A DNA stretch of 36,069 nt, taken from Candidatus Hermodarchaeota archaeon. GTDB lineage: Archaea > Asgardarchaeota > Lokiarchaeia > Sigyniarchaeales > SOKP01. The notes under the pieces were generated by a model. That model saw only the letters and a list, made by a program, of their open reading frames with translations, was not told where the DNA came from and searched no databases. The first letter of the stretch is position 1, and every line of letters starts with the position of its first letter. Shown here in pieces: positions 1,207 through 26,281 of the stretch. A program made the position numbers and the translations under genes. The stretch is taken from positions 1 to 36,069 of the forward strand of contig JBHLLP010000033.1 in the NCBI GenBank assembly GCA_048885525.1, written 5' to 3'.

Positions 1207-1342
1207 AAAAGAGAAAGTAAACTAGTATTATATGAAGTTTACTAGGATTGAATATTGGATTTGTAATTTTAAGAATCTATTGTCTCAATATTATTATCAA
1301 TTCTCTAAAATAAAAATAGTATCTTTACTATTAATACAATTA

Positions 1343-4378: not shown

Positions 4379-4420
4379 TAAATCCGATAATCTCAAATTA
4401 TATTATATTTTCAATGTAAA

Positions 4421-7680: not shown

Positions 7681-8073
7681 TCATTTCTGTTTGATATAAG
7701 AGGAAACACCTAGCACAAAAAGTATACTCATAAAGATTAATCCCATAAAAAATTGAGAGAGAGCAAAAGCTGAAAGTGTTGGGAAAAGTAAGATTAAAAG
7801 CGAAATATTTATGATTATAGTTGGGATAAATATCACGAATAAATATGAGTATATTAATTTAACACTTTCCCACTCTTTTCTACGCAGAATTATTATCGCA
7901 TAAATTGAACAAATCAGGCATATTCCTCCAAATACTCTCGGATCCATCGGATCATACCAACCAACTGCACCTATTAGAAGTTCTGGTATAGTAAGGTACA
8001 TAATTCCATATAACAAGGTAACTATTGTATAAGCTACAAGCCAAATTTTGGTTAACTTTTTTAATTCAGTCAT
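7681..8073 (-). CDS. Small 4-TM membrane protein
   Basis: Four hydrophobic segments, GWYDPMDPRVFGG loop, SD-like GAGTTGAT 6 nt before the ATG. Confidence 0.8.
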   Translation of the reverse strand: MTELKKLTKIWLVAYTIVTLLYGIMYLTIPELLIGAVGWYDPMDPRVFGGICLICSIYAIIILRRKEWESVKLIYSYLFVIFIPTIIINISLLILLFPTLSAFALSQFFMGLIFMSILFVLGVSSYIKQK

Positions 8074-8106
8074 TTTTTTATCAACTCTTTTTTTTAAAGA
8101 TCGGTT

Positions 8107-8206
8107 TTATCACCAATTTAGTGATCAATTATATCTTGAGACTCAGTTTCCTTTATAATTGGGCTTCCGATAGTTCCGTGATAGTTCCAATATAATATGG
8201 AAGTTC
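8107..8206. promoter_or_regulatory. Divergent promoter region with GATAGTTCC direct repeats (candidate operator) and leader hairpin
   Basis: GATAGTTCC at 8169-8177 and 8180-8188 (11-bp period); ATCAC-N7-GTGAT at 8109-8125; lies between divergent genes 8073(-) and 8277(+). Confidence 0.55.
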
Positions 8207-8276
8207 TATGAAATAAATATAAATAGAAAAGAAACCGATCTATAATTTAGAAAAAAAATTTAGTTTTCAAATCATC

Positions 8277-10175
8277 ATGGGTATCATAAATTATCCCCCA
8301 GAAAAGATTTATAGCCCTTCCAAGTTGAAGAGACCGGATTATGACCATATTATTCTCTGGATGTTGAATAATAATAATACATGCAAATGGGCGGATTTTC
8401 ATCGAGAACCAATTGAAATTCCTACGGGTACATTATCTAGACATTTAGACACATTAAAACGTAAGGGTTTTGTAGAAAATTTTACTAGAGGGCATTACAG
8501 AATTACTTCAGAGGGAAAAAAGAAATTTCATGAGTTATCATCATCTAAAAAGAAAAAACGCAGACTAAACTATCCTCCCGAAATAATATTAAGAAGTGGA
8601 AGGAATTACTCTCACTGGATTCTGTGGATGATTTATAATAATAATTACTGTAAAAGAACTGATTTCCTTAAAAAACCATTGTCTATAAATCAAACTTCAT
8701 TATCAAAAAATTTGAACTTATTAATTGAAAAGGGATTTGCATCAAAAGAAGATGGAAAATATCTAATTACCCAAGCAGGGAAATCTGAATACTCAAGGAT
8801 GTTAAAAAACTATGATTTGGATAGGCAAACTATTTTGGAAGAGGAAAGTAAACGAATTGAAGAGATTACTAAAAAAACACTTCAATTTTTTGAGATTTAT
8901 AATATTAAAGATGAAAATATACAATATAGGTTTCTAAATAATATACTAAGATTAGACTATGAAAAAGTAAAACCTATATTAAAAGATGAGGAAATCTTTC
9001 ATAAAATCATACTTTTCCTTTCGATTAATCATCCGGATCAATATCCAAACCTTATATCCTCTGAAGATTTTTCTAAAATTTATAAAATTAAGAAAACTAC
9101 GCTTGATTATTACATTGATGAGATCTCAGATGGTAAAATATATCCATTAAGATTTTTTAAGTTAAGGCAACCATCAGGCGAACAATATTACTTTCAATCA
9201 GATGGAACGCTAGAAAAAATGCTTCGAATAATCACCGAGAATAAAATCACTAAAGTTTCTTATTTAAATAAGCTTTTTTCTAAAAAAGTTATGTTAGATA
9301 TGGAATCCACAATAAATGATATTGCTAACAAGAGTTGTAAATTCTTATTTAATAAAAAATTGAAAGAATCTCTCAGAGAGTTTTTGCCGGAATATATTAA
9401 ATATTTAGCTTATAAAATTGAGACTAAGAAGAAATTAAAAGAGACTTATGATAAATTAGAGGGAGTTATTTGGCAGAATATAACAGATGCTTTTCAATCA
9501 AAAATCTCTGAAAATTTAGTTGATAAATATGAAGAACAAATAAAAGAGATTGAAAAAGAAATTGAAATAAAACCTAAGAATCTCAACTTATATTATTCGA
9601 AGATTAGAGTTCTGATTTACTTTAACCAATACAAAGATACAATAAATTTTTTAGAGGAAATGTTAGAAATTTTTCCTGAAAGTGAGAAGGATATTAAGGT
9701 ATTAAAAGCAGCCGTTCTTAGAAGAATGCAAAATGTTGAAGCAGGATTAGAAATCATTGAGTCTTTAATTGAAAAGTACCCTAAAGTCCATGATCTCCTT
9801 AGTTATAAAGCCTATTGGCTACAGTTTTTGGATAAAAAACAGCAAGCATTAGAAATAATTCAAAATCTTATAGAAATTGAACCTGAGGCGGGAATTTATT
9901 ATGACACATATGGTGAGATTTTAATGTATTTTGAAGATTATGAAGAAGCTGCTAAAAAATTTGTAAAGTCAATGGTTTTAGGAGCCCATGAATGGTATAT
10001 TTTTCAGACTTATATCAAATTAGGAATTTGTTATAAAGCTATTGGAAATATTGATTTAGCAGTTGAAAATCTCAATAAAGGAATAGAACTTACAGAGAAA
10101 AAAGTAAAAGATTCTGAAACAAAAGAAAAATGGCTTTCCATTGCTAATCTTTTTCTTTCAGAACTTAAGCCATAG
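8277..10175 (+). CDS. Tandem winged-HTH + C-terminal TPR putative transcription regulator (paralog 1)
   Basis: Two internal repeats NYPP...ILWM..NN...LS..L..L...G......Y.IT..G (wHTH), a possible third HTH (EDFSKIYKIKKTTLDYYIDEI), and C-terminal TPRs (YYDTYGEILM, TYIKLGICY). Confidence 0.8.
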   Translation: MGIINYPPEKIYSPSKLKRPDYDHIILWMLNNNNTCKWADFHREPIEIPTGTLSRHLDTLKRKGFVENFTRGHYRITSEGKKKFHELSSSKKKKRRLNYPPEIILRSGRNYSHWILWMIYNNNYCKRTDFLKKPLSINQTSLSKNLNLLIEKGFASKEDGKYLITQAGKSEYSRMLKNYDLDRQTILEEESKRIEEITKKTLQFFEIYNIKDENIQYRFLNNILRLDYEKVKPILKDEEIFHKIILFLSINHPDQYPNLISSEDFSKIYKIKKTTLDYYIDEISDGKIYPLRFFKLRQPSGEQYYFQSDGTLEKMLRIITENKITKVSYLNKLFSKKVMLDMESTINDIANKSCKFLFNKKLKESLREFLPEYIKYLAYKIETKKKLKETYDKLEGVIWQNITDAFQSKISENLVDKYEEQIKEIEKEIEIKPKNLNLYYSKIRVLIYFNQYKDTINFLEEMLEIFPESEKDIKVLKAAVLRRMQNVEAGLEIIESLIEKYPKVHDLLSYKAYWLQFLDKKQQALEIIQNLIEIEPEAGIYYDTYGEILMYFEDYEEAAKKFVKSMVLGAHEWYIFQTYIKLGICYKAIGNIDLAVENLNKGIELTEKKVKDSETKEKWLSIANLFLSELKP

Positions 10176-10292
10176 AAGTAGATCATTAAAAAAATCTAAA
10201 TCTTATTCTCTAAGTTTTACAATTCATTGGATAGAGCTTTAAACTTATTATAAGAAGGTTTTTTATCTATTGATCTAATTTTTATCATTCAA

Positions 10293-11807
10293 TTAATTTT
10301 TTCCTTTTATTTCTAAATCTATACTTTCTTCTTCCTTATATGATATTGTTGGCTTCAAAGAATCAATCGGAATGTCACACACCCAACATAGATTTTCCAA
10401 ATTGGTTAAAGCTCGAGCGCAGTTTTCGCAATAGATAGCCCCACATTTACATATATACGAGAAACCCAATACTTCACCTTTACATACCAAGCACATTTTC
10501 TTCTCTTTAGAAATTATTACTTCCTCTTCTTTAACTTGCGTCCTTAATATAATAGGCTTTAGATTCATTTTTTCAATTAATTCATCTATGCGAGCTAGTT
10601 CTAAACGTTCTATCATTGGTGCTCCCACTTCCTTAAGTTTATGCCATAAAACTGATTTTTCGTTTAAATCCTCTTTCTCTTTAGAAATTTGTTGGGCTAA
10701 TTGAATATGGTCAAATCTTTCTGCAATTTGCTGAGCTTGGGTAAAGAATCGTTTAGCTTCTTTAAAATTAAAAATTAGTAGACTTATTTTTCCTTGTAAG
10801 AGAAATGTCTCAGCAGCAAAATAATAGGATTTTTGATGTTCTGCAATTTTTAATAATTTTTTAATATATGGGTTTATTTCGTTTATTATATCTGAATCGT
10901 TAGTTATTCTTAATTCAATAAGAAGTAGGTCACAAATATTTATTATTGCTTTAATAACGAACTGGAAATTTTCTTTTTCCTCAGCAACTTGCTTAAATAA
11001 ATCTTCTGCTTCAATTCTATCTCTTGCTCGCAAACTCGTTTTCAATATTAAAGCTTTATAGTAATGATACAATAATTCAGAATAACTTTGTTTATCTTTT
11101 TCTATTAAATCACTCATCAGTTGGAAATAATATTTTGCATTAATAGTATCACCCTTCCCTAGATAACTATCAATCAGAAGTCCAAAAGAATTTAATAACC
11201 GAGGGGGGTAACCGACTTCTAGAGCACGTTTTGCATAATTTATAGCTTTATCATAATCTCCAAGGAAATGATAAGATTCCGCAAGATTTAATAGAGGTGA
11301 TGATTTTCGCTCTTTATCTTCACTATATTTTGCGAGCTCGAAAGCTTTTTCATTTAACATAAGGCTAAGTTGAGAATTTCCTGTAAGTCCTGCATTAATA
11401 GCTTTAATTCTGATCATATAAGATTCTTTTTCTCTAAGATCTGTCTTTGATACTCCTTTGAGATTTTCAAATATCTCCTCAGCTTTTTTAAGCGCAATAC
11501 TACTTTTACTTAAATCTCCCATCATTAAAAGTGAATATGCTTGAATTAACAAACCTTCAAAATATGAGGGTAAATCTCCTTGTTTTTGAGTTTCTTGTAA
11601 AAATTGGATAACAAGGCTAAGAGTTTTTGAATATTTTGATGACCTATATAATAACCTTAATTTCAATAACATAAAAGAGATTAAATTCTGATTAGATAAA
11701 TTACTCCTCTCCTCAATATCCAAAATAATTTGCAACGCTTCTTTAATTCTCCCTTCATATGTAAGCTGTTTTACTTTATTCAGCTCAATAATCTCAGAAT
11801 CAGACAT
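10293..11807 (-). CDS. TPR-repeat protein with C-terminal C4C4 RING-like zinc finger (paralog of 2190-3707)
   Basis: CLVC-x10-CKCGAIYCENC-x10-CWVC; shares the LRARDR..AE and CDLLLIELRITND blocks with the other TPR proteins. Confidence 0.8.
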   Translation of the reverse strand: MSDSEIIELNKVKQLTYEGRIKEALQIILDIEERSNLSNQNLISFMLLKLRLLYRSSKYSKTLSLVIQFLQETQKQGDLPSYFEGLLIQAYSLLMMGDLSKSSIALKKAEEIFENLKGVSKTDLREKESYMIRIKAINAGLTGNSQLSLMLNEKAFELAKYSEDKERKSSPLLNLAESYHFLGDYDKAINYAKRALEVGYPPRLLNSFGLLIDSYLGKGDTINAKYYFQLMSDLIEKDKQSYSELLYHYYKALILKTSLRARDRIEAEDLFKQVAEEKENFQFVIKAIINICDLLLIELRITNDSDIINEINPYIKKLLKIAEHQKSYYFAAETFLLQGKISLLIFNFKEAKRFFTQAQQIAERFDHIQLAQQISKEKEDLNEKSVLWHKLKEVGAPMIERLELARIDELIEKMNLKPIILRTQVKEEEVIISKEKKMCLVCKGEVLGFSYICKCGAIYCENCARALTNLENLCWVCDIPIDSLKPTISYKEEESIDLEIKGKN

Positions 11808-11926
11808 CTAAGTTACTTTAAACCTCTAAATTCTTTTGGATTTATTTAGTTTTAAAAGTTAAATTCTCTTCTAAGTATATTCTAAAACAAAATTCTTTAT
11901 TTGTTTTTGGTACAATCTCAAAAATC

Positions 11927-12481
11927 TTACAATTCATTGGAAAGAGCTTTAAACTTATTATATAATTTTTCGATAAGAGTATTAAAAGCTTTATAAACTC
12001 CTTCTCCTGTTTTTGCTGATGTTATATAATATCCGAGAAAATTTCGTTCTTTTATAAGTTCTTGAATTTTGGTTTTATCCAAATTGTCTTCCTCAATTAA
12101 ATCAACTTTATTGGCAAAAACAACAATAGGAATATCTCCACAGTATTGTTTTATATCATCATGCCAATTTGTTATATGTTCAAAGCTCCGTGTACCCAAA
12201 TCGTTTTCTTCGAGACTATATACGATAATAGCTGCTCTACTTTCTCTATAAAAAGAAGGACGTAAAAAAAGGAAATCATCTTGCCCTGCTATATCCCAAA
12301 ATAATAATCTAATCTTATCTCCACTAATTTCTGCAAAGAACTCAGAAAATTGGGCACCAATGGTCTTAATATATTCTTTTTGAAACGTGCCTTGCGTGAA
12401 CTTTTTAATCAAGGAAGTCTTTCCTACGCTACCATCCCCTATAACAATAACCTTAAATCCGAATTTTTGAGAATCATTCAT
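11927..12481 (-). CDS. Rab/Ras-like small GTPase
   Basis: GDGSVGKT, YIKTIG, WDIAGQ, NKVD, TSAK; close paralog of 3824-4378. Confidence 0.93.
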   Translation of the reverse strand: MNDSQKFGFKVIVIGDGSVGKTSLIKKFTQGTFQKEYIKTIGAQFSEFFAEISGDKIRLLFWDIAGQDDFLFLRPSFYRESRAAIIVYSLEENDLGTRSFEHITNWHDDIKQYCGDIPIVVFANKVDLIEEDNLDKTKIQELIKERNFLGYYITSAKTGEGVYKAFNTLIEKLYNKFKALSNEL

Positions 12482-12517
12482 TTAATTTTCAAGTAGATTT
12501 CCAATTATTAAATTAAG

Positions 12518-12546
12518 ATTAGAATTATACTAATTTAAAATTTTAG
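12518..12546 (-). promoter_or_regulatory. GTPase promoter, copy 2 (ATTAG-N7-CTAAT plus TATA-like box)
   Basis: Matches 4421-4449. Confidence 0.5.
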
Positions 12547-12616
12547 TCTCTGTGAATCTTGAAAAATTAATAAAATACTTATTTAAAATATAAGGGAAAA
12601 AAAAGAAAAAAAATTT

Positions 12617-12697
12617 TTAATAATTTTGATAAACTTGACAATATCCATTGTTATAGACTTTTACTCGTTGTTTTTCAGCAACGTCCATTTTTTTCAT
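12617..12697 (-). CDS. Unannotated 26-aa peptide MKKMDVAEKQRVKVYNNGYCQVYQNY
   Basis: Strong SD GGAGGTGAT (12713-12705) 7 nt before the ATG, own TATA box (12765-12771), U-rich terminator-like tract after the stop (12597-12613), upstream region homologous to that of 23283-23357. Confidence 0.75.
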   Translation of the reverse strand: MKKMDVAEKQRVKVYNNGYCQVYQNY

Positions 12698-12804
12698 TTT
12701 TTTTATCACCTCCATTTTGTATTGTTTTTTATTTTTTTCTTAATTTTAATATGGATAAGCTTCGTTATATAGTTTTTATTGCGGAACTTTTCGCGAAGTT
12801 CGAA
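12698..12804 (-). promoter_or_regulatory. Peptide-gene leader, BRE/TATA and palindromic operator GAACTT-N6-AAGTTC
   Basis: Minus strand AAAAACTATATAA; palindrome at 12784-12801; ungapped alignment to 23358-23464, and its last 44 nt align to 24273-24316. Confidence 0.75.
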
Positions 12805-12899
12805 TATGAGAAAAGGTTTATGAACAAAACCAAAATTAAGGTGAAAAAACAGATTAGGATTAGAAATTACATCAATTATAATTCTCAGTTATATTTCGT

Positions 12900-14855
12900 T
12901 TAATTTAACCGAATTGTTTTTTCAGCAAATATTTCATTTATCAATGGTTCTAGGGAAGGGATATCTTTTAATTGTACTAATCGGCTTGTTTGGTTGTATT
13001 CATTGAACGTCTTCCATATGGTTGCATCCTGTTTAACATTATCAATGAATTTTGCTACTCTTTGCTGCGCGAGATATGATTGTCCCTTGAATAAATAGCA
13101 TACAAGGAAAGGATGCAAAGAATTCATAATAATTGTATACTCCCCAAAATTCGCCCTGTTGAGACCCTCAGAGAACATTTGATCACTAAAGGAATTTATA
13201 GCTGTTAGAAAACCTCCAAAAAGATGATCCTCGAAAGCCCATTCTTCCGCAAAGGAATTAGAGAATAGGGGCCTACCACCCTCTGAAATAATCAATAGTA
13301 CGATAGGTTCCTCATCAGTAAGCTCAGGAACAATAATTTCTCGTTTTCGGATCATCCTTTCCATCTGTTCATTTGGACTTGCTAACTCCAAGCGTTCATA
13401 TAATGGTGCTTTAGATTCTTTTAATTTGTTCCACACATCTAATTGTTTAAGTAATTCATCATGCTCATTCGATATCTTTATTGCTAACCGATTGAGACCA
13501 TAATTATCTGCTATTTCTTGAGCCTTAATTAATAACTGCCGAGCTTTTTTTATATCCAACGTAATTAAGGATAATCTTGCTTGGAGCAAATATGTTTCAG
13601 CTAATAGAGAATAAGAACGCGAATTTTTAACGGTGTCAAATAATTGAGAAATATAAACTTGCAATTCATCCAGTATTTCAGGTTCGTTAGTTGCATATAA
13701 CTCAAATAGGAGCAAATCGCACAAGTTCAGGAGAGCCATTTTTAAACTTTCAAAGTCAGAGATTTCTTCTTCAATCAACTGTTTTAACATCTCTTCAGCT
13801 TTCCCACGATTAACAGCGCGGGGGCTAGATTTCAGGTATATAGCTCTATCAATGTTATATAGTATATTATAATAATTGGATTGATTCTTTTCTTGATCAG
13901 AAATTTGCTTCATTCGATTTAACCATCGCTGTGCCTGTTCAAGATCGTTCATATCAAGAGCTAATTGAAACAAACTATCAGTAAAGGCAAATTTCTGAAT
14001 AATTGTACCATATTCTTCTGCAATAGTTATACTTTTTTTCAAAAACTTTAAGGCATTGTCGTAATCGCCTTTTTCATGGTATGTCATTCCAATGCTATTA
14101 TATATTGGTGATAATAATTCTAATTTGTTTTCTTTCTCTGTAAATGATAGGATTTGTTCGTAATAACTAAGAGCCTTATCTAATTCACCTTTGAGCGTAT
14201 AAATCATTCCAAATTGCAAATTGCAATAGTGAAAAATATCTATTAAGTCAAGTTTATTGCAATGATTTTTACATGATTTAATATATTCTAAAGCACAGTT
14301 TAAGTTTCCAATTTTCCAGGAAATCACTCCAAGTTGGTAATGCATAAGAGCAATATCTACTTTTAGATTGAGATCTTCTAGGATTACTAGAGATTCCTCC
14401 CTAAATTCTTTAGCTTTTTCCAGATCTCCTTTCTGCTCATGATAAGCGCCTTTGTTCCATAATATATATGCTTTTCTTTTTTTGAGTTCTGTGGATAATT
14501 CTTGAGGGAGTATCTTCAGTAGATCTTCACTCTTTTTGATAAAGCCAGCTGCTTCATTTGTCTTATAAGACCAATTTGATATAGCTCCCATAAGAATATA
14601 GACATCAAGCAATAAAATGGAATTTTCAAGCTTTTGGCTTTCACGATAAGCTTTTTCGGTATATTTTGTACATTCATTTCTATCTTGAAAATAAAAGGCG
14701 ACAAAACCTTTTAGACAATAATAAGCTATCCGCTCACGATAAGAGAGATCTTTTTTGTTTTTAAAATCATTGAGTATTTGAAGAGCTTCTTCGATTTTAC
14801 CTGCTTCAATAAGCTTTTCTGCTTGACCTAATTCCTTATGTATTAAATGAGCCAT
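12900..14855 (-). CDS. TPR-longin protein, array copy 5
   Basis: TPR repeats plus longin-like tail LLIISEGGRPLFS...HLFGGFLTAINSFSDQMF. Confidence 0.82.
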   Translation of the reverse strand: MAHLIHKELGQAEKLIEAGKIEEALQILNDFKNKKDLSYRERIAYYCLKGFVAFYFQDRNECTKYTEKAYRESQKLENSILLLDVYILMGAISNWSYKTNEAAGFIKKSEDLLKILPQELSTELKKRKAYILWNKGAYHEQKGDLEKAKEFREESLVILEDLNLKVDIALMHYQLGVISWKIGNLNCALEYIKSCKNHCNKLDLIDIFHYCNLQFGMIYTLKGELDKALSYYEQILSFTEKENKLELLSPIYNSIGMTYHEKGDYDNALKFLKKSITIAEEYGTIIQKFAFTDSLFQLALDMNDLEQAQRWLNRMKQISDQEKNQSNYYNILYNIDRAIYLKSSPRAVNRGKAEEMLKQLIEEEISDFESLKMALLNLCDLLLFELYATNEPEILDELQVYISQLFDTVKNSRSYSLLAETYLLQARLSLITLDIKKARQLLIKAQEIADNYGLNRLAIKISNEHDELLKQLDVWNKLKESKAPLYERLELASPNEQMERMIRKREIIVPELTDEEPIVLLIISEGGRPLFSNSFAEEWAFEDHLFGGFLTAINSFSDQMFSEGLNRANFGEYTIIMNSLHPFLVCYLFKGQSYLAQQRVAKFIDNVKQDATIWKTFNEYNQTSRLVQLKDIPSLEPLINEIFAEKTIRLN

Positions 14856-14971
14856 AATTTTCTCAGATATTATAGGTTTGAATAGCTTGGATTATAACTT
14901 TTCAGATACAAGTTATATAGTAAGAAAATTACCATTTTAAATGTAATTACAATACCAATAAAAAATCGAAT

Positions 14972-16924
14972 TTACGCAATCAGGGGGACACTTTTATCTA
15001 TAAAGATTTTAGTTATCAATGGTTCAAGGGAAGGAACATCTTTTAATTGAACTAATCGGCTTGTTTTATTATAATCATTAAACATCTTCCATATGTTAGC
15101 ATCCTCTTTAACATGATCAATGAATTTTGCCACTCTTTGCTGTGCAAGATATGATTGACCCTTAAATAAATAACATACGAGGAATGGTTCGAGAGGATTC
15201 ATAATAATAGTATACTCTCCAAAATTAGCCCTATTGAGCCCCTCAGAGAACATCTGATCACTAAAGGAATTTATAGCGGTTAAAAAACCTCCAAAAAGAT
15301 GATCTTCGAAAGCCCATTCTTCTGCAAATGATTTAGAGAATAGAGGCCTTCCACCCTCCGAAATAATTAAAAGTACTATAGGATCTTCATCAGTAAGCTC
15401 AGGAACAACTATTTCTCGTTTTCGGATCATTTTCTCCATCTGTTCATTAAGTTGTGCTAACTTCAAGCGTTCAGCTAAAGATGCTTCTGATTCTTTTAAT
15501 TTGTCCCACACATCTAATTGTTTAAGTAATTCATCGTGCTCATTCGAAATTTTCATGGCTATTAAATTAAGACCGTATTTTTCGGCAACTTCCTGAGCTT
15601 GTGTCAAAAACCGCCGAGCTTCGTTCGTATCAAAAGTTATTAATGCTACTTTGGCTTGTAATAGGTAGGTTTCAGCGAGATACCAAAACGAGTTTGTTTT
15701 CTCAGTTAATTCTAATAAACGATTTAGATTGGTTTTAATCTCTTCTAGCACTTCAGCATCGTTAGTTATGCGTAATTCAACCAATAATAAATCACAAAGC
15801 TCTATTAATGCTTCAATTTTTGAAATAACTCCTTCTTCTTCAATAATTTCTCTCAATATTTCTTCTGCTTTGACCCGGTTTTTAGCTCTTGTGCTTGTTT
15901 TCAGTAGGATGGCGCTACTCAAACGAAAACATGAATTAATCCATTTACTTTCCTCTTGTTCGTTGAGCTGCTTTAAGCGGTTAAAGTGTTTTTGAGCTAA
16001 TTCAAGATCGCCCATTTCGACTGCTGCACCAATCAAATTAGTAAGAGTTGTAGATGTGTGTAAATTAATCCCGAGTTCCTCTCTTATTGTTAGACCTCGC
16101 TCTAGATGCCCTAAAGCACGAATAAAGTCACCCTTTCCTCTATAGATATTCCCAATTTGGGTATGTGCAGCTGCGATCATCTGTTTATTATTAATCTTTT
16201 CGTGTAATTTTAAACCTTGCTCTGCATATATGAGACTTCGATCTAATTCACCTTTATTCAAATGAACAAGCATTAACCATAGCAAGTTTTGAGCTATAAA
16301 ATACTTGCTATTACTTTCCTCTGCTAATAATAAACTTCGCTTTAGATATTTAATGGCATGATTCAATTCACCTTTTTGTCCAAAAAGAATATGAGCGATC
16401 CAATAAAGGGATTCAGCAATCATAACTTTATTGTCTAATTTCTCTCCCAATTCTAAACTCTGTTCTAAGAACTTTAGTTGATTATCCATTATTTGAATGA
16501 ATATACCTTTAACTAAAAAAATGTGAGCTTCTCGTTTCATGATGTCTTCTGGTAATTCTCGGGTAAATTTTTTTAATAATTCTTCGGCTTGGTTAATTAC
16601 ATTAATAGCTTCCTCTTCTCTATCAAGAAATTTTAAAGCCTTCGCGCTGAGTATTAAGGCGTCAACTGATTGGAGATTTTTTCCCAACTCTAAACTCTCT
16701 TTATATGTTTGATCTGCTATTTTAAGCATTTCCTCAAATTTCCATTGCCAATATAAAAGGTTGCACTTGAGGAGCCGAAATGATACTTTATCCTGAAGCA
16801 TGAGGCCCTTCATTTGCTCGAAACTGTCAATGAGTTGGAGGGCTTCATCATACTTGCCTTCATCAATGAGTTTTTTTGCTTGAACAAGCTCCTTAGATTC
16901 ATCACTGGACATATTTTCATCCAT
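14972..16924 (-). CDS. TPR-longin protein, array copy 4
   Basis: Same architecture; ELRITND subtype. Confidence 0.82.
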   Translation of the reverse strand: MDENMSSDESKELVQAKKLIDEGKYDEALQLIDSFEQMKGLMLQDKVSFRLLKCNLLYWQWKFEEMLKIADQTYKESLELGKNLQSVDALILSAKALKFLDREEEAINVINQAEELLKKFTRELPEDIMKREAHIFLVKGIFIQIMDNQLKFLEQSLELGEKLDNKVMIAESLYWIAHILFGQKGELNHAIKYLKRSLLLAEESNSKYFIAQNLLWLMLVHLNKGELDRSLIYAEQGLKLHEKINNKQMIAAAHTQIGNIYRGKGDFIRALGHLERGLTIREELGINLHTSTTLTNLIGAAVEMGDLELAQKHFNRLKQLNEQEESKWINSCFRLSSAILLKTSTRAKNRVKAEEILREIIEEEGVISKIEALIELCDLLLVELRITNDAEVLEEIKTNLNRLLELTEKTNSFWYLAETYLLQAKVALITFDTNEARRFLTQAQEVAEKYGLNLIAMKISNEHDELLKQLDVWDKLKESEASLAERLKLAQLNEQMEKMIRKREIVVPELTDEDPIVLLIISEGGRPLFSKSFAEEWAFEDHLFGGFLTAINSFSDQMFSEGLNRANFGEYTIIMNPLEPFLVCYLFKGQSYLAQQRVAKFIDHVKEDANIWKMFNDYNKTSRLVQLKDVPSLEPLITKIFIDKSVPLIA

Positions 16925-17023
16925 ATTTTTAGAAAAAATTGGATTCTAATTTTCAATATACAAGTTATATATTAAGTTATTTATCATTTTAAATGTACTT
17001 AAATTATCAATAAAAATTCGAGT

Positions 17024-19000: not shown

Positions 19001-19099
19001 AGATTATCAGTTTAAGAATATGGATTATAACGGTTTGAATACAATTATATTATTAAGAAAATTGAAATTTTAAATGTAATTAAACTCTCAACTAAAAAA

Positions 19100-21052
19100 C
19101 TAAGCAATAAGGGGGACGCTTTTATCAATAAAAATCTCATTTATCAATGGTTCAAGAGAAGGAATATCTTTTAATTGTACTAATCGGCTTGCTAGATTAA
19201 AATCATTAAATGTCTTCCATATGACAGCATCCTCTTTAACCTTATCAATGAATTTTGCTACTCTTTGCTGTGCGAGATATGATTGTCCCTTAAATAAATA
19301 ACATGCGAGGAATGGTTCGAGAGAATTCATAATAATGGTATATTCACCAAAATTCGCCCTGTTGAGCCCCTCAGAGAACATCTCACCACTAAAGGAATTG
19401 ATGGCAGTTAAAAAACCACCAAAAAGATGATCTTCGAACGCCCATTCTTCCGCAAAGGATTTAGAGAATACGGGTCTACCACCCTGTGAAATAATCAATA
19501 ATACGATAGGTTCCTCATCAGTAAGCTCAGGAACAATAATTTCTCGTTTTCGGATCATCCTTTCCATCTGTTCATTTGGACTTGCTAACTCCAAGCGTTC
19601 AGATAATGGTGCTTTAGATTCTTTTAATTTGTTCCACACATCTAATTGTTTAAGTAATTCATCGTGCTCATTTGATATCTTTATTGCTAACCGATTGAGA
19701 CCATATTTATCTGCTATTTCCTGAGCCTTAATTAACAACTGCCGAGCTTTTTTCATATCCAAGGTAATTAAGGATAATCTTGCTTGGAGTAAATATGTTT
19801 CAGCTAATAGGGAATAAGAACGGGAGTTTTTGACGGTGTCAAACAATTGAGAAATATAAACTTGCAATTCATCTAGTATTTCTGGTTGCCCAGTCGCATG
19901 TAATTCAAATAAGAGCAAATCACATAAGTTAAGGAGAGCTATTTTTAATAATTCATAATCGGAAATTCCTTCTTCAATTAATTGTTTCAACATCTCTTCA
20001 GCCTTACCCCGATTGAGAGCTCGAGGGCTATATTTCTGGAAAATTGCTCTATCTACGTTATATACTATATTAAGTCCTCTTGAATTTTCTCGATCAGCGA
20101 TTTGCTTAATTCGATTCAAGTATTTTTGTGCTTTTTCAAGATCGTTCATATCAAGAGCTAAGTGAAACAAACTATCAGATCTGTAAATTGTATGATACTC
20201 TTCCTTAATAGTTATACTTTTTTCCAGATTTTCTAATGCTCGGCTGAAATCTCCTTTTTCTTGATAAATCATTCCAATATTATTGTACATCGTTGTAATT
20301 AATACTAAATCATTTTCTTTTTCTGCAAATGCTAGTGCTTTTTCATAATAACTAAGAGCTCGATCTAGTTCACCCTTCATACTGTAAATAATTCCAAATT
20401 GATTATAACAACTGTGAATAAGGTTTATTAAGTTGAGATTATTAGCAAGAATTTTACAGGATTCAATAATTTCTAGAGCATGGTTTAAGTCTCCAATAAG
20501 CCAAAAAACCCGCCCAAGTTGAAAAAGAGTCAGAGCAATGTCCGCTTTATGATTGAGTTTTTCTCGTATTACTAGAGATTCCTCCGCACATTCTTTTGCT
20601 TTTTCCAATTCTCCTTTCAGCTGGCATTTAAAGCCTTTTAGCCACAATAGAAAAGCTTTTTTTTTTGTCAGTTCTGTGGATAATTCTTGAGGGAGTATCT
20701 TTAGTATGTCTTCACACTTTTTGATAAATTCATATGCTTCATTCGTCTTATAATGCCAGAGTAAATTATTTGCCATTTGAAGATAGACATCAAGCAATAG
20801 AAGGGAATTTTCAAGCTTTTGACTTTCACGATAAGCCTTTTCGGCATATTTTGCTATTTCATTTCTATCAAAAAAATAATTGGCGAGGCTACTTTTAAGT
20901 GTATAATAATAAATTCGCTCAAAGTAAGGAAGATCTTTTTTCTCTCCAAAAGTATTCACTAATTGGAGTGCATTTTCGATTTTACCTTCATTAATAAGCT
21001 TTTCTGCCTGAATAAGCTCCTTAGGTTCTGAATAAACCATATGTTTTTCCAT
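19100..21052 (-). CDS. TPR-longin protein, array copy 2
   Basis: Same architecture; first 91 aa differ from copy 1 at only 3 positions. Confidence 0.82.
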   Translation of the reverse strand: MEKHMVYSEPKELIQAEKLINEGKIENALQLVNTFGEKKDLPYFERIYYYTLKSSLANYFFDRNEIAKYAEKAYRESQKLENSLLLLDVYLQMANNLLWHYKTNEAYEFIKKCEDILKILPQELSTELTKKKAFLLWLKGFKCQLKGELEKAKECAEESLVIREKLNHKADIALTLFQLGRVFWLIGDLNHALEIIESCKILANNLNLINLIHSCYNQFGIIYSMKGELDRALSYYEKALAFAEKENDLVLITTMYNNIGMIYQEKGDFSRALENLEKSITIKEEYHTIYRSDSLFHLALDMNDLEKAQKYLNRIKQIADRENSRGLNIVYNVDRAIFQKYSPRALNRGKAEEMLKQLIEEGISDYELLKIALLNLCDLLLFELHATGQPEILDELQVYISQLFDTVKNSRSYSLLAETYLLQARLSLITLDMKKARQLLIKAQEIADKYGLNRLAIKISNEHDELLKQLDVWNKLKESKAPLSERLELASPNEQMERMIRKREIIVPELTDEEPIVLLIISQGGRPVFSKSFAEEWAFEDHLFGGFLTAINSFSGEMFSEGLNRANFGEYTIIMNSLEPFLACYLFKGQSYLAQQRVAKFIDKVKEDAVIWKTFNDFNLASRLVQLKDIPSLEPLINEIFIDKSVPLIA

Positions 21053-21154
21053 AAATTATCGGTTAAAAATTTGGATTATAACTTTTCAGATACAAAGAAT
21101 ATATTAAGAAAATTACCATTTTAAATGTAATTTTCTAACAATCTAAATTCGAAC

Positions 21155-23122
21155 CTACGCAATTAGGGGGATACTTTTATCTACAAAGATTTTTGTTATT
21201 AATGGTTCGAGCGAAGGGATATCTTCTAATTGTACTAATCGGCTTGTTTGGTTGTATTCATTAAACGTCTTCCATATGATTGCATCCTCTTTAACATTCT
21301 CAATGAACTTTGCTACTCTTTGCTGTGCGAGATATGATTGTCCCTTAAATAAATAACACACAAGGAAAGGATGGAGCGAATTCATTATGATAGTATACTC
21401 CCCAAAATTAGCTCTGTTGAGCCCCTCAGAGAACATCTCATCGCTAAAGGAATTTATCGCGGTTAAAAAACCACTAAAAAGATGATCTTCGAACGCCCAT
21501 TCTTCTGCAAATGATTCAGAGAATATAGGCCTTCCACCTTCTGAAATAATTAATAATACGATAGGCTCCTCATCCGTAAGCTCAGGAACAATAATTTCTC
21601 GTTTTCGGATCATCCTTTCCATCTGTTCATTTGGGCGCGCTAACTTCATACGTTCAGATAAAGATGCTTTAGATTCTTTTAATTTGTTCCATACATCTAA
21701 TTGTTTAAGTAAATCATCGTGCTCATTCGATATTTTTATTGCTAAACGATTAAGGCCATATCTATCTGCTATTTCCTGAGCCTTAATTAACAACTGCCGA
21801 GTTTTTTTCATATCCAACGTGATTAATGATAATCTCGCTTGGAGTAAATATGTTTCAGCTAGTAAAGAATAAGAACGAGAACTTTTAACAGTGTTAAATA
21901 ATTGGGAAATATAAATTTGTAGTTCATCTAATACTTCTGGATCATTAGAAGCATGTAATTCATAAAGGAGCAAATCGCATAAGTTAAGGAGAGCAATTTT
22001 TGAAGATTCGTAGTCAGAAATTCCCTCTTCAATTAATTGTTTTAAGATCTCTTCAGCTTTACCCCGATTAAGAGCTCGAGAACTAGTTTTCAGATAAATG
22101 GCTCTATCAATGCTATATGGTAGATTATAATAATTTGTTTGATACTTCTCTTGATCTGCAATTTGCCTCATTTGATTTAAGTATCGCTGGGCTTGTTCAA
22201 GATCGTTCATATCAATAGTTAAATGAAATATTGTATCCGAAACAGTAAATATTTCATAATTCGTACCATATTCTTGTTTAATAGCTATACTTTTTTCTAA
22301 ATTTTCTAATGCACAGTTAAAGTCTCCTTTTTCTTGATAGATCATTCCAATATTGTTATAAATACTTGAAATAAAGGTCATATTATTTTCTTTTTTTGCA
22401 AATGGTAATGCTTTTTCAAAATAACTAAGAGCCCGATCTAATTCACCTTTCATAGAGTAAATACACCCAATTTGATTATAACAACGGTGAAGTAGATGTT
22501 TTAAGTTAAGATTATTAGCAAGAGTTTTTGATGATTCAGAATATTCTAAGGCATTTAAGTCTCCAGTTATCCATGAAAACCATCCCAGTTGATAAAGAAT
22601 TAAAGCTATATCTGTTTTAATATTAAGTTCTTCTAGTAATACAAGAGTTTCTTTCCAAAATTCTATAGCTCTTTCCAGTTCTCCTGTTTGTCGAAGGTCC
22701 TCGCCTTTTAACCATAATATATATGCCTTTCTTCTAGTGAGTTCTGTAGATAATTCTTGAGGGAGTTTCTTCAATAGGTTTTCACTATTTTTAATAAATT
22801 CAAATGCTTTCTTTCTCTTAGAATGTAAGAATAAATTAATTGCCATTAGAAGATAAACATCTAGCAAGAGTAGGGAATTTTCAAGCTTTTGACTTTCATG
22901 ATAAGCCTTTTCGGCATATTTTGCCATTTCATTTCTATCAAAAAAATAATTGGCGAGTCTACTTTTAAGTGTATAATAATATATTCGCTCAAAGTAAGGA
23001 AGATCTTTTTTCTCTCCAAAAGTATTCACTAATTGGAGTGCATTTTCGATTTTACCTTCATTAATAAGTTTTTCTGCCTGAATAAGCTCCTTAGGTTCTG
23101 AATAAACCATATGTTTTTCCAT
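21155..23122 (-). CDS. TPR-longin protein, array copy 1
   Basis: Same architecture. Confidence 0.82.
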   Translation of the reverse strand: MEKHMVYSEPKELIQAEKLINEGKIENALQLVNTFGEKKDLPYFERIYYYTLKSRLANYFFDRNEMAKYAEKAYHESQKLENSLLLLDVYLLMAINLFLHSKRKKAFEFIKNSENLLKKLPQELSTELTRRKAYILWLKGEDLRQTGELERAIEFWKETLVLLEELNIKTDIALILYQLGWFSWITGDLNALEYSESSKTLANNLNLKHLLHRCYNQIGCIYSMKGELDRALSYFEKALPFAKKENNMTFISSIYNNIGMIYQEKGDFNCALENLEKSIAIKQEYGTNYEIFTVSDTIFHLTIDMNDLEQAQRYLNQMRQIADQEKYQTNYYNLPYSIDRAIYLKTSSRALNRGKAEEILKQLIEEGISDYESSKIALLNLCDLLLYELHASNDPEVLDELQIYISQLFNTVKSSRSYSLLAETYLLQARLSLITLDMKKTRQLLIKAQEIADRYGLNRLAIKISNEHDDLLKQLDVWNKLKESKASLSERMKLARPNEQMERMIRKREIIVPELTDEEPIVLLIISEGGRPIFSESFAEEWAFEDHLFSGFLTAINSFSDEMFSEGLNRANFGEYTIIMNSLHPFLVCYLFKGQSYLAQQRVAKFIENVKEDAIIWKTFNEYNQTSRLVQLEDIPSLEPLITKIFVDKSIPLIA

Positions 23123-23282
23123 AAATTATCGGTTTAAATACTTGGATTATAACTTTTCAGATACAAGTTATATAATAAGATATTTGCCATTTTAAATATA
23201 ATTAAAACGTGATGTATTTTAAGATATTAAAATTCAGAGAGAAAAAGAATAAAAAATAAAAAAATAAAAAAAATAAGTTATA

Positions 23283-23357
23283 TTATTTAGTAATTGTTGG
23301 GATAATAGGAAATCCAGCACTTTTTACGAATATTGCCTTGCTTGCTTTTCTTTTCAT
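23283..23357 (-). CDS. Unannotated 24-aa peptide MKRKASKAIFVKSAGFPIIPTITK
   Basis: SD-like AGTGAT 7 nt before the ATG, same spacing as the 12697 peptide; homologous promoter; long U-rich tract after the stop (~23242-23275). Confidence 0.7.
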   Translation of the reverse strand: MKRKASKAIFVKSAGFPIIPTITK

Positions 23358-23464
23358 TTTTTTTATCACTTTTTTTTGTTTTATTATTTTGTTTTTTTCT
23401 TAATTTTAATATTGAAATACTTCGTTATATAGTTTTTACCGCAGAACTCTATTCGAAGTTCGAA
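23358..23464 (-). promoter_or_regulatory. Peptide-gene leader, BRE/TATA and operator, copy 2
   Basis: GAACTC-tattcg-AAGTTC at 23444-23461; colinear with 12698-12804. Confidence 0.75.
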
Positions 23465-23614
23465 CATTTATCAAGATAAGAAAACTAGTAAAAAAATTTA
23501 AGAATTAAACTCTCAAAAAAGAATAAAAGACTGTTTAAAAAAGAATAAGATAAAAATTAAAAAAAGAATAAGAAAAGAAACTATTTATACATAAATAGTT
23601 GGGATGTTCATAAA

Positions 23615-24214
23615 TTAATTTAAAAACTTTGATTTCTGGATAAATAAAATATTGGATTTAACGTTAGATTCTTTCAATTTCTTCGATATCTCAACAAAAG
23701 TATTTTCTTCACCAAAATGAACAAAAGTTATTCCTTTATCTTCGCGACCTTTTAAAATCTCTAGAATTCTTTTAGTAATAGCATCCGTTCGTACACGATT
23801 ATTGATGTAATGCTTTAAATCTTTTAATTCATCTGAGTAATCATAAATTAAATAACCTAGCTCTTTAGCAGTTGGAGAATTTTTATCTTCTAATGAATTA
23901 TATGTAGCTTTTAACTCAGAAAGTCTCTCCTGAAGTTCAGTTATTTGACTTGAGAAGTAATCCTTTACATAATGAGGTGATTCAACTGTGAAATAAGGGA
24001 TCTCAAATTGTTTCAACACTTCTGCCAAATAAGTATTATTGAAGTCTCTTAGATTTATACTACCCAAATCAATTGTTGCGAAATGTATAGGAAGATTCCT
24101 TATCTTTTCAACAACATCCTCAATATCTTCTTGTGTAACTTCACCATTTAAATCTCTTATTAAATATCCAGAGAAATCTATATCAGCCAATAATTCAAAC
24201 ATTATACTTGCCAT
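23615..24214 (-). CDS. Hypothetical alpha/beta protein, possibly degenerate TraB/PrgY/GumN (TIKI/EreA-like) fold
   Basis: Start moved to ATG 24214 (MASIMF; SD-like AGTGAA), since the 24277 ATG lies only just 3' of the TATA box, probably upstream of the transcription start. EDIEDVVEKIRNLPIHFATIDL, YLAEVLKQFEIPYFTVES and RTDAITKRILEIL...TFVHFGEEN...LKE resemble TraB/GumN blocks by eye. CDS is confident, family is tentative. Confidence 0.6.
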   Translation of the reverse strand: MASIMFELLADIDFSGYLIRDLNGEVTQEDIEDVVEKIRNLPIHFATIDLGSINLRDFNNTYLAEVLKQFEIPYFTVESPHYVKDYFSSQITELQERLSELKATYNSLEDKNSPTAKELGYLIYDYSDELKDLKHYINNRVRTDAITKRILEILKGREDKGITFVHFGEENTFVEISKKLKESNVKSNILFIQKSKFLN

Positions 24215-24272
24215 TTTATTTTCACTTTTTTTTATTTTGTTTGTTTTTTTTATAATTATATTATAAGATAAG

Positions 24273-24340
24273 TTCATTATATAGTTTTAAATATGAAACT
24301 TCATACGAAGTTCGAACTTAAAAAAAAGTTTATATAGAAT
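24273..24340. promoter_or_regulatory. Back-to-back promoters with operator copy 3 (AAACTT-N6-AAGTTC, plus perfect AAGTTCGAACTT)
   Basis: 44-nt ungapped alignment to the two peptide promoters. Minus-strand TATA at ~24278-24283 and plus-strand AAAAAAGTTTATATA at ~24322-24336 ahead of the regulator. Confidence 0.75.
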
Positions 24341-24385
24341 AAGAAACTACTTATAAATAAGGATAAATTAAGCATAAAAAAAATT

Positions 24386-26281
24386 ATGAGTATTGTAAAT
24401 TATCCTCCTAAAGAGATTTATAAAGCACCTAAATATGGAAAGAAGAATTTTGAGCATATAATTCTTTGGATGCTAGCAAATAATGATGAATGTCAATGGT
24501 CAGACTTTACACAGGATCCTTTAGGATTTAGTACTTCAACTCTATCTAAATATTTCAATTTATTAAAGAGTAGGGGATATGTTGATAATTATTCTCGAGG
24601 TTATTATAAGATAACACTTGAAGGGGAAAAGAGATTTAATGATTTATCTAGAACCCGTGGTGAGAAAAGAAGATTAAGCTATCCTCCTGAAGTAATTTTA
24701 AGGAGGAGAAATTATGATGATTGGATTCTATGGATGGTTTATAATAATACATTTTTGAAATGGTCTGATTTTCTTGCTGAACCTCTTAGCATTAACCAAT
24801 CATCCCTATCAAAGAATATGAATCTTTTGATAAATAAGGAGTATGTACTAAAAGAGAATAAAGAGTACCGAATTACCCGTTCAGGCAAAATAGAGTATTC
24901 AAGAATGCTACAGAATTATGACTTAGATAGACAATCAATTTTAGATGAGGAGAGTAAGAGAATTGAAGAGATTACCAAAAAAACCATAGAATTCTTTGAC
25001 ACTTACGATATTAGGGATGAAGATATTCAATTTAGGTATCTCAATAACGTTATAAGGTTAGATTATGCCAGAGTTAAAGCTATGTTAACAGAAGAGGAGG
25101 ATTTTGAAAAAATCTTACTTTTTCTTTCAATGAATCATCCAAACCAATATCCAAACTATATTTCTATGGAAGATTTTTCAAAGACCTATAGAATAAAGGA
25201 GTCAAAATTGGAGTATTATATTGATGAGATCGTTGAGAATCAGATATATCCAATAAAATTTTTCAAATTAAAGCTTCCTCCGAATGAAGTATATTACTTC
25301 CAGGAAAATGAAAGAGTAGAGATTATGCTTCGGGCTATAACAGAAGATCATATAACTAAATTTACTTACTTAAGTAAGTTATTTTCAAGATCATTAGATT
25401 TACGTACTACCATTGATAATATATTAGATGATATTTGTGGGTTATTATTTAATGAATGTTTTAAAGAGTCTTTAAGTGAGTTTCTACATGATTATATTAG
25501 TTACTTAGCATATAAGATTGAAGCGAAAGAAGAATTAAAAGAAACATTAGATAAACTAGAAGGAATAATCTGGCAGGATATGATGGAATTATTTCAATCA
25601 CTGAGTACTGGGGATTTGAAAGACCAATTTGAAGAACAGATTAAAGAGATAGATAAGGAAATCAAATCTGATCCGGATAATATCGATTTATACAATTCAA
25701 AAATCTCAATTTTACTCTACTATGAACAATTAGAAGATGTATTGAAATTATTAAATGAAATGCTAGAGAAATTCGAAGAGAATGAAATTGGTATTAAGAT
25801 GAAAAAAGCATCAGTTCTTAGAAGAATGCGAGATGTACAGAGTGGTTTAGATATTATCAATGAATTAATCAAGAAATATCCTGAAAATAATGATCTACTT
25901 AATTTTAAAGTCTATTGGTTACAATATTTAAATAGAAGAGAAGAAGCATTGAAAATAATTGAAGATCTCATTGCTAACGTTCCTGATAATGGAACGTATC
26001 ATGATACATATGGAGAACTCCTAATGTATTATGAAGAATATAAACAAGCTACAGAAAGATTCTTAAAAGCAATTGAAATAGCTGGTGATGAGTGGTATAT
26101 TAATCAAACATATATTAAGCTAGGAATCTGCTATAAAGAACTTAAAAACTTCGATTTAGCGCTTCAAAATCTTAAAAAAGGTAAAGAGTTAACAAACAAA
26201 AGCTCAGGAGATGCAGAGACTAGACAAAAATGGCTTACAATCGCTGACCTTTTTCTATTAGAAATAGAACAAATGCTTTAA
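24386..26281 (+). CDS. Tandem winged-HTH + TPR putative transcription regulator (paralog 2)
   Basis: Full-length paralog of 8277-10175 (shared PLSINQ.SLSKN, NYDLDRQ.IL.EESKRIEEITKKT, TYIKLGICYK). Confidence 0.8.
   Translation: MSIVNYPPKEIYKAPKYGKKNFEHIILWMLANNDECQWSDFTQDPLGFSTSTLSKYFNLLKSRGYVDNYSRGYYKITLEGEKRFNDLSRTRGEKRRLSYPPEVILRRRNYDDWILWMVYNNTFLKWSDFLAEPLSINQSSLSKNMNLLINKEYVLKENKEYRITRSGKIEYSRMLQNYDLDRQSILDEESKRIEEITKKTIEFFDTYDIRDEDIQFRYLNNVIRLDYARVKAMLTEEEDFEKILLFLSMNHPNQYPNYISMEDFSKTYRIKESKLEYYIDEIVENQIYPIKFFKLKLPPNEVYYFQENERVEIMLRAITEDHITKFTYLSKLFSRSLDLRTTIDNILDDICGLLFNECFKESLSEFLHDYISYLAYKIEAKEELKETLDKLEGIIWQDMMELFQSLSTGDLKDQFEEQIKEIDKEIKSDPDNIDLYNSKISILLYYEQLEDVLKLLNEMLEKFEENEIGIKMKKASVLRRMRDVQSGLDIINELIKKYPENNDLLNFKVYWLQYLNRREEALKIIEDLIANVPDNGTYHDTYGELLMYYEEYKQATERFLKAIEIAGDEWYINQTYIKLGICYKELKNFDLALQNLKKGKELTNKSSGDAETRQKWLTIADLFLLEIEQML

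Follow-up and report, generated by a model that had tools for sequence, protein, structure and literature searches.

Contig JBHLLP010000033.1 of Candidatus Hermodarchaeota archaeon (assembly GCA_048885525.1) carries a gene for a DNA-binding tetratricopeptide repeat (TPR) protein, REG2, together with two very small peptide genes (A and B) and three copies of an operator-promoter module. These lie among genes for Rab-like small GTPases, for TPR proteins ending in a longin domain (TPR-longin) and for TPR proteins ending in a RING-like finger (TPR-RING). The window analysed here is this whole contig (36,069 nt), and the genome is 99%-complete, 3.58 Mb in size and of about 30% G+C. Its close relatives have been deposited as Promethearchaeota/Lokiarchaeota MAGs, in agreement with the Asgard origin given in the preliminary description of this DNA. 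We read the locus as a lineage-specific feedback cassette of regulator and micro-peptides that is attached to GTPase-longin-RING modules and is an analogue of the RRNPP systems by gene layout only; we give this reading a probability of about one half. The genes, the operator, their conservation, the coding signature of the small genes and the folds of the proteins are established. Pfam scans, AlphaFold2 (AF2) models and alignments located all of the elements listed in a preliminary description of this DNA (Table 1).

The regions of about 120 nt upstream of peptide A, peptide B and a gene for a 199-aa protein are homologous DNA. In each of them a TTCGAA palindrome overlaps the inverted repeat GAACTT-N6-AAGTTC and is followed, about 12 nt beyond the repeat, by a transcription factor B recognition element and TATA box (BRE/TATA), a leader of 45-70 nt, a Shine-Dalgarno site and the ATG. 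Copies A and B share 82.6% identity over 121 nt, and the third copy (24212-24333) matches copy A at 75% over 128 nt; a fourth copy, on contig C25 of the same genome, shows 72.5% identity over 171 nt. Exactly four occurrences of the 11-mer core TTCGAACTTCG exist in the genome, each within a module, and three of them are in the window. The palindrome that had been described as common to both peptide promoters and the divergent promoter of REG2 is part of one homologous module. Two of the modules in the window drive the peptide genes (26 and 24 aa) and the third drives the 199-aa gene, which faces REG2.

The module extends well beyond this genome. A strict operator pattern matched in 8 of 31 genomes of the genus, and a relaxed pattern gave 45 sites in 28 of 54 genus genomes. 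The reversed-pattern control gave no site, so the operator module is not the product of chance. An order-wide scan placed the module in 27 of 53 genomes of the genus, in one of 42 genomes of one sister genus and in none of 22 other genera. The same operator-promoter was also seen ahead of longer genes. At L017:1283-2178 (G016) and L048:1501-2381 (G014) it drives a soluble gene product of 262-266 aa; the G016 protein, the one covered by the Pfam scan (the G014 gene was not included), has an HATPase_c domain and a weak HisKA match. The genes behind it in G006, G011 and G017 encode proteins of 71-93 aa.

Orthologues of REG2 (61-83% identity) occur all through the genus, where the REG family numbers 4-13 paralogues per genome; public data hold more than 1230 homologues of REG2, all labelled hypothetical or 'TPR repeat protein'. 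At 21 of 24 REG2-orthologue loci, the operator and one to three small open reading frames (ORFs) of 21-30 codons are located on the divergent side, a count that takes in six more distant orthologues whose TATA box escaped the search pattern. At two of the other loci the operator has decayed and the ORF is missing, and at the last neither was seen. In G023 (L006:3391-3560) and G014 (L005:1-402) the REG2 orthologue is intact, the peptide gene has gone and an operator remnant is kept; the TATA box of this remnant is mutated in G023, and the module is truncated in G014.

Winged-helix matches (HTH_34, HTH_45, MarR and PadR) occur twice in tandem in the Pfam scan of REG2. The AF2 model has two confident winged helices, a poor middle part and a confident TPR domain of five repeats, with a predicted local distance difference test score (pLDDT) of about 90. 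A second regulator gene in the window, REG1, encodes the same arrangement, and both proteins are winged helix-turn-helix (HTH)-TPR regulators, as the preliminary description had it. Among REG2 orthologues the DNA-binding half is better conserved (identity 0.75-0.87) than the TPR half (0.57-0.73), a pattern that fits a fixed operator and a changing ligand. We propose that REG2 acts as a one-component regulator, with two winged-helix domains for DNA binding and a TPR domain at the C-terminus, and that it probably binds the operator directly upstream of the BRE/TATA at its own divergent promoter and at a few others. Its main targets would be the micro-protein genes of 21-30 codons.

Two observations concern the REG paralogues. 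The region upstream of REG1 (8100-8276) has repeats of its own, GATAGTTCC twice, 11 nt apart, and an inverted GGAAGTTC; it faces the gene for a 130-aa membrane protein with four helices, and not a peptide gene. On contig C10 of this genome (G000:C10:56590-56670) there is a gene for a 25-aa peptide with the same leader, divergent from and 525 nt upstream of an 840-aa REG paralogue (57178-59700). Because the direct repeats upstream of this peptide gene are different, the data suggest that each class of REG paralogue has its own operator and peptide.

We read 39 distinct modules, and about 30 of them have an open frame of 21-28 codons that begins at a fixed distance after the Shine-Dalgarno site and ends before an oligo-T tract. 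In the window, the ORFs of 26 and 24 aa each have this promoter and Shine-Dalgarno site, and an oligo-T tract after them, which bears out the description of tiny genes with their own promoter, ribosome-binding site and terminator. The peptides fall into type A (with KVYNxGY), type B, type D (GYWN), type I (IIKIRND) and type K (ending PKKYxxGxKDL), and most of them start with basic residues and have a stretch in which hydrophobic and basic residues alternate, and a turn. Orthologues of peptide A were found in G001, G006, G009 and G056. Type-B orthologues adjoin the REG2 orthologue in G021, G017, G007 and G045; a further type-B peptide is present in G062, at a locus where no regulator was seen.

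The substitutions in these genes argue for a translated product. In type I the pairwise differences by codon position are 8/17/36. Six of the first 19 codons vary, five of them only synonymously, and the changes in the last six codons are mostly non-synonymous. The pattern in type A is similar, with a synonymous front and a variable tail. Synonymous changes in a constant front together with a diversifying tail are the signature of a translated product, and to judge from the DNA the small ORFs are real, conserved genes that look translated. The preliminary description had made its proposal depend on conservation of the small ORFs in relatives, and this conservation is found. When the genome was scanned for further peptide genes by the combination of Shine-Dalgarno site, M-K/R start and oligo-T tail, 3 hits were obtained, as against 2 in the reversed genome; the scan was therefore not discriminating.

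These substitutions also bear on the possibility that the small ORFs are regulatory leaders, in which translation and the oligo-T terminator would set read-through to the GTPase or TPR genes and the peptide would have no function. A strong oligo-T tract does follow each ORF, with a co-oriented gene 130-300 nt further on, and the leader and first codons are A-rich and highly conserved as DNA. However, synonymous substitutions within the invariant stretch of 19 residues point to selection on the protein. Additionally, several peptide genes have no co-oriented gene downstream, two peptide genes can stand in tandem or on one transcript, and there is space for an independent promoter ahead of the GTPase gene. 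We regard such a leader function as quite unlikely.

The peptides, which we favour as functional products under the control of REG2, are basic, hydrophilic micro-proteins with a constant N-terminal part resembling a beta-hairpin and a fast-changing tail of 6-10 residues. They are most likely to be ligands or modulators of a TPR domain, acting within the cell or after non-classical release. The TPR domain in question could be that of REG2, which would give feedback, or that of TPR-longin or TPR-RING. A complex prediction for REG2 residues 405-631 (18-row alignment) with a 32-residue reading of peptide A gave a score of 0.09, under the mark, in a run made without controls, and weighs neither for nor against such binding.

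The neighbourhood of the cassette is conserved within the genus. In five extended loci of other genomes (L071-L075) there are a REG2 orthologue with one or more divergent peptide genes, a second REG paralogue, genes for a PepF-like oligopeptidase and a SET-domain protein, and a GTPase gene flanked on each side by a gene for TPR-longin or TPR-RING. All five loci, like the window, keep the GTPase gene, the TPR-longin or TPR-RING gene, and PepF and SET, and the PepF and SET pair flanks the cluster in each case. Conservation of the GTPase, TPR-longin and TPR-RING genes together, the second point on which the earlier proposal had been said to depend, therefore holds in this genus. In G001, the REG2 orthologue and the GTPase gene have the orthologue of peptide A directly between them. 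The TPR-longin array, peptide B and the 199-aa gene of the window therefore look, from gene order, like an insertion that duplicated the operator module.

The position of the peptide genes also raises the possibility that the micro-proteins act on the GTPase side. As short beta-hairpins they could dock on the Rab-like GTPase or on the longin domain by strand addition and tune nucleotide cycling or the choice of partner, with REG2 controlling their supply. At no fewer than 8 loci a Rab-like GTPase gene follows the peptide gene directly and on the same strand, and at most of the remaining loci the next gene encodes TPR-longin or TPR-RING. A stretch of alternating hydrophobic and basic residues, a turn and an aromatic stretch are common to all types. 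The downstream gene nevertheless varies for a given peptide type, and some peptide genes are solitary and far from any GTPase gene. Judged on these sequence patterns, action of the peptides on the GTPase side would be unlikely.

In Bacillota, RRNPP receptors are bound by exported peptides, and the same could be supposed here: the peptides would leave the cell, possibly be cut down to the variable tail, be taken up again and bind to the TPR domain of REG2, and the peptide types would be pherotypes between strains. In keeping with this are the receptor-regulator beside the peptide gene, as in the RRNPP layout, the constant front and hypervariable C-terminal tail, the several peptide types that occupy the same locus among close relatives, and the syntenic enzyme of the oligopeptidase F type. 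PepF/PepO-type peptidases degrade the Phr, SHP and XIP peptides in Bacillota. The 29 peptides analysed, however, have a mean grand average of hydropathy (GRAVY) of -0.64, a median net charge of +4, a longest apolar run of 4 residues (median) and no GG leader. Being hydrophilic and basic, and having neither an apolar segment of signal-peptide length nor such a leader, they carry no Sec/Tat or double-glycine export signal, and this speaks against secretion. Their variable tail would be compatible with processing to a short C-terminal peptide. The conserved neighbourhood has no exporter and no Opp-type importer. A literature search turned up no case of quorum sensing by peptides in archaea.

The TPR domain of REG2 is canonical. 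The 50 best matches of the REG2 model in a Foldseek search of the PDB include consensus TPR, OGT, MamA, APC/C, Tom70 and Pex5 and no RRNPP protein, a result that leaves room for distant kinship. The helices with Asn (of the YNNIG type) that had been noted earlier are ordinary TPR_12 consensus and not an RRNPP-like hallmark. We therefore think RRNPP-style quorum sensing in the strict sense rather improbable. The bolder version is a first case of peptide signalling between archaeal cells that arose independently of RRNPP and has strain-specific pherotypes, and in which the receptor-regulator and the TPR sensors would link a population signal to Rab-like GTPase/longin switching and RING modification; it appears to us about equally doubtful. 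In the reading that we prefer, in which a regulator and its micro-peptides form a feedback cassette, the syntenic PepF-like oligopeptidase would be a candidate for turnover of the peptides.

The cassette is attached to GTPase modules of eukaryote-like type. The TPR array described earlier consists of five tandem TPR-longin genes with variable N-terminal parts; a sixth such gene is in the first module. The whole proteins of the array are 50-76% identical and their C-terminal domains are 86-90% identical (five copies), which fits either gene conversion or a very strong constraint on the C-terminus. The AF2 model of this domain (pLDDT 79, predicted template modelling score 0.76) has beta-beta-alpha-beta-beta-beta-alpha-alpha topology. 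Its top 18 Foldseek matches (E 6e-5 to 1e-3, template modelling (TM) score 0.42-0.58) are AP2 sigma/mu, Sec22b, the VAMP7 longin, TRAPP Bet5/Trs23 and zeta-COP. Entries of Mon1-Ccz1 and Fuzzy-Inturned are matched as well, and roadblock proteins rank below the longins. A PDB sequence search with the profile of the domain returned nothing meaningful (best E 0.005, to a designed protein). The model and its fold matches support a longin fold for the C-terminal domain, as had been proposed. At G000:C25:18819-19957 (L001:6820-8010) a TPR-longin gene appears to be broken; its N-terminal fragment carries TGA and TAG stops, and a separate 120-aa longin-only ORF follows, directly after which come the fourth operator module and its gene for a 23-aa peptide.

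The Rab-like GTPases and TPR-RING proteins that had been noted as adjacent are both confirmed, with two genes of each in the window. For the GTPase encoded downstream of peptide A, the best relatives among solved structures are Rab23 (E 1.7e-32), Rab21, Rab30, Rab18 and a Thorarchaeota Rab, and sequence similarity supports its assignment as a Ras-superfamily G domain closest to Rab. Its translation has no Cys at the C-terminus and hence no prenylation motif, as is usual for Asgard GTPases. Longin/roadblock dimers are known as platforms for guanine nucleotide exchange factor (GEF) or GTPase-activating protein (GAP) activity, and the gene adjacency makes it likely that the TPR-longin beside each GTPase is a platform of the GEF/GAP type. 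In the TPR-RING tail, the spacing C-x2-C-x10-C-x-C-x4-C-x2-C-x10-C-x2-C is invariant in three proteins, and a profile of the three tails matched only RING E3 domains in the PDB (best RBBP6, E 1.2e-3). The Pfam zf-C3HC4_3 match has 19.1 bits, below the cut-off of 27. The eight invariant Cys and the PDB matches support a C4C4 RING-like finger, in line with the earlier prediction. A search confined to the window identified no E2 or ubiquitin-like partner.

The make-up of the array could also be that of a diversifying conflict or self/non-self system, in which tandem, fast-evolving TPR sensors would work with GTPase/RING effectors and the peptides would be toxins, decoys or identity tags. The tandem TPR-longin paralogues do have variable, sensor-like parts and a homogenised effector domain, they are patchy in copy number within the genus, with one broken copy on C25, and the tails of the peptides are hypervariable. 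Yet Pfam scans of the window gave no known defence or toxin domain, the sole related match being a very weak EAD11 (E 8e-3), and the cluster is syntenic among housekeeping genes and not island-like. A conflict system is for these reasons very improbable.

Several observations weigh against the feedback cassette that we favour. The operator also precedes genes that encode no micro-peptide, namely those for the 199-aa protein, the HisKA/HATPase protein and the 71-93-aa proteins. About four such peptide genes are present in this genome (A, B, and those on C25 and C10), as against at least 15 TPR-longin paralogues; the earlier view of the TPR-longin array as a repertoire of peptide receptors is not supported by this ratio. 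Peptide type does not track the REG2 tree, types A, B and K with I each occurring in two clades. The REG2 columns that separate type A from type B number 14, compared with 18-21 when clade-mates of unknown type were substituted and 6-7 for label swaps, and the search for type-tracking columns did not outperform the controls. Three REG2 loci are without a peptide gene, and the regulator can therefore work without one. As all of the genomes belong to one genus, the conserved synteny, including that of PepF, may be due to shared ancestry rather than function. Finally, we infer that REG2 binds the operator and that the peptides bind a TPR domain, and likewise any effects on GTPase cycling or ubiquitination; the three output branches of the preliminary description (transcription, nucleotide exchange and ubiquitination) are purely hypothetical.

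Table 1. Genes and operator-promoter copies of the window
Feature	Position	Strand	Evidence and remarks
PepF-like M3 oligopeptidase, N-terminal part	1-1206	-	Pfam Peptidase_M3_N, E 3.5e-12; gene truncated by contig end
SET-domain protein	1232-1819	+	Pfam SET, E 4.7e-13
TPR-RING, 505 aa, first module	2190-3707	-	TPR_12, E 2e-15; eight-Cys tail aligns with that of 10293-11807
Rab-like small GTPase, first module	3824-4396	-	Pfam Ras, E 2.9e-39
TPR-longin, 652 aa, first module	4478-6436	-	TPR_12/TPR_MalT matches; C-terminal domain aligns with the longin-fold domain
Two small exported or membrane proteins	6752-7444 and 7681-8073	-	
REG1, two winged helices and TPR	8277-10175	+	Pfam HTH_34, E 3.5e-8, and TPR; 58% identity to REG2
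TPR-RING, 504 aa	10293-11807	-	zf-C3HC4_3, E 1.1e-3
Rab-like small GTPase, downstream of peptide A	11927-12481	-	Pfam Ras, E 1.3e-42
Peptide A gene, 26 aa, type A, core motif KVYNxGY	12617-12697	-	Shine-Dalgarno site and oligo-T tail
Operator and BRE/TATA, copy 1 (TTCGAA palindrome overlapping GAACTT-N6-AAGTTC)	12766-12804	-	
Five tandem TPR-longin genes, about 650 aa each	12900-23122	-	
Peptide B gene, 24 aa, type B	23283-23357	-	Leader as in peptide A; Shine-Dalgarno site and oligo-T tract
Operator and BRE/TATA, copy 2	23426-23464	-	
199-aa protein behind operator copy 3	23615-24214	-	True start at 24214, after the common leader
Operator copy 3, between divergent promoters of the 199-aa gene and REG2	24278-24316	-	Perfect 12-nt palindrome AAGTTCGAACTT at 24308-24319
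REG2: winged helices 20-90 and 108-177, poorly modelled middle 182-412, five-repeat TPR 411-631	24386-26281	+	Pfam, AF2

At the left end of the window, the fragment of the PepF-like gene is 76% identical to a full orthologue of 596 aa. The two domains of an oligopeptidase F (M3B) enzyme are both found, Peptidase_M3_N in the fragment and Peptidase_M3 in the full orthologue (E 4e-41). One further, distant PepF-like gene is present in the genome, on contig C5. Beyond REG2 there are housekeeping genes (GNAT, thiolases, a radical SAM protein and leucyl-tRNA synthetase). An Rfam scan of the window gave no family at gathering score. In the relatives, a conserved GC-rich element with a long hairpin, a candidate non-coding RNA, lies between the second REG paralogue and another Rab-like GTPase gene (L071:17901-18312, L072:6092-6926 and L075:11168-11913); it is not present in the window. 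L072 and L075 also have an ORF of 14-19 codons after a Shine-Dalgarno site, starting M-(F/Y)-G-F.

The 199-aa protein behind the third operator copy has no Pfam match. It belongs to hypothetical clusters exclusive to Promethearchaeota, and its homologues elsewhere sit in unrelated contexts. We rejected the gene as a conserved component of the system because homologues in other Promethearchaeota are unlinked to it. The Atlas model of the protein has a TM score of 0.63 to TraB/PrgY/GumN, a structural lead at most, as against 0.78 to the unrelated Mpt_N fold.

Asgard archaea have dozens of Rab-like GTPases and longin/roadblock proteins, whose partners, regulation and functions are largely obscure; published work on MK-D1 notes that pairs can seldom be recognised from gene order. 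The cassette offers a defined, testable set (a regulator, its operator, the micro-proteins, the trio of TPR-longin, GTPase and TPR-RING, and a candidate peptidase), all of it accessible in vitro. If the micro-proteins are ligands of a TPR domain, it would be a convergent archaeal counterpart of the bacterial receptor-peptide cassettes and would give a first clue to the control of eukaryote-like GTPase modules in the prokaryotes most closely related to eukaryotes. Additionally, genes of 21-30 codons are systematically missed in the annotation of these genomes.

The closest parallel in gene layout is with the RRNPP systems of Bacillota and their phages (Rap/Phr, NprR/NprX, PlcR/PapR, PrgX/cCF10, Rgg/SHP and AimR/AimP). 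As in these, a very small ORF stands beside the gene for a cytoplasmic TPR protein that has its DNA-binding domain at the N-terminus, at the 21 of 24 loci given above. The operator of the regulator, here a probable one, controls the peptide gene. The front of the peptide is conserved and its C-terminal tail variable, with several types among close relatives, and an oligopeptidase F-type enzyme is encoded nearby. In contrast with the RRNPP systems, the host is an archaeon and the DNA-binding part consists of two winged helices of the MarR/PadR/HTH_34 type in place of an XRE-type HTH or the 3-helix bundle of Rap. The peptides are hydrophilic, basic and without an export signal, and the cassette is tied in with genes for Rab-like GTPases, longins and RING proteins. 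The cassette is not a member of the RRNPP family, because a fold relationship, the HTH type and a peptide export signal were all sought and none was found. In support of the RRNPP-like system first proposed are the layout, the coupling of operator and small ORF at these loci and the constant front with variable tail; homology to RRNPP proteins is not supported, since the TPR is canonical and the winged helices are not XRE-type HTH domains. Our literature search found no description of this regulator-peptide cassette in Asgard archaea, nor of an RRNPP-like system in archaea.

The finger of TPR-RING resembles the C4C4 RING of the CNOT4 type in its eight Cys ligands (C-x2-C ... C-x-C-x4-C-x2-C ... 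C-x2-C), but differs in that the matches reach only about 1e-3 and the Pfam score is under the curated cut-off. The C-terminal fold of TPR-longin matches the longins of the tri-longin RabGEFs Mon1-Ccz1 and Fuzzy-Inturned/CPLANE, which act on Rab7 and Rab23. The best solved relative, by sequence, of the GTPase in the window is Rab23, and Rab23 is the client of CPLANE. Unlike these RabGEFs, TPR-longin has a single longin domain and not three, its partner GTPase has no prenylation motif, and the TM scores are modest (0.4-0.58).

Finally, a Ras-superfamily GTPase gene beside genes for a roadblock/longin-fold protein and TPR scaffolds is a feature shared with the MglA/MglB/SgmX module of Myxococcus xanthus and with the GTPase/roadblock-longin pairs of Asgard archaea. 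Expansions of small GTPases and of longin/roadblock proteins, with domain shuffling, have been described in Asgard archaea (Liu et al., 10.1101/2020.10.19.343400). The tight linkage of GTPase and longin genes seen here is unusual, because in MK-D1 the GTPase genes are generally outside operons with roadblock/longin genes (PMC10933270). In contrast with both the Myxococcus module and the Asgard pairs, the longin domain here forms one protein with a long array of TPRs, the pair has been multiplied in tandem, and a RING-like protein, a dedicated regulator and micro-peptide genes are associated with it.

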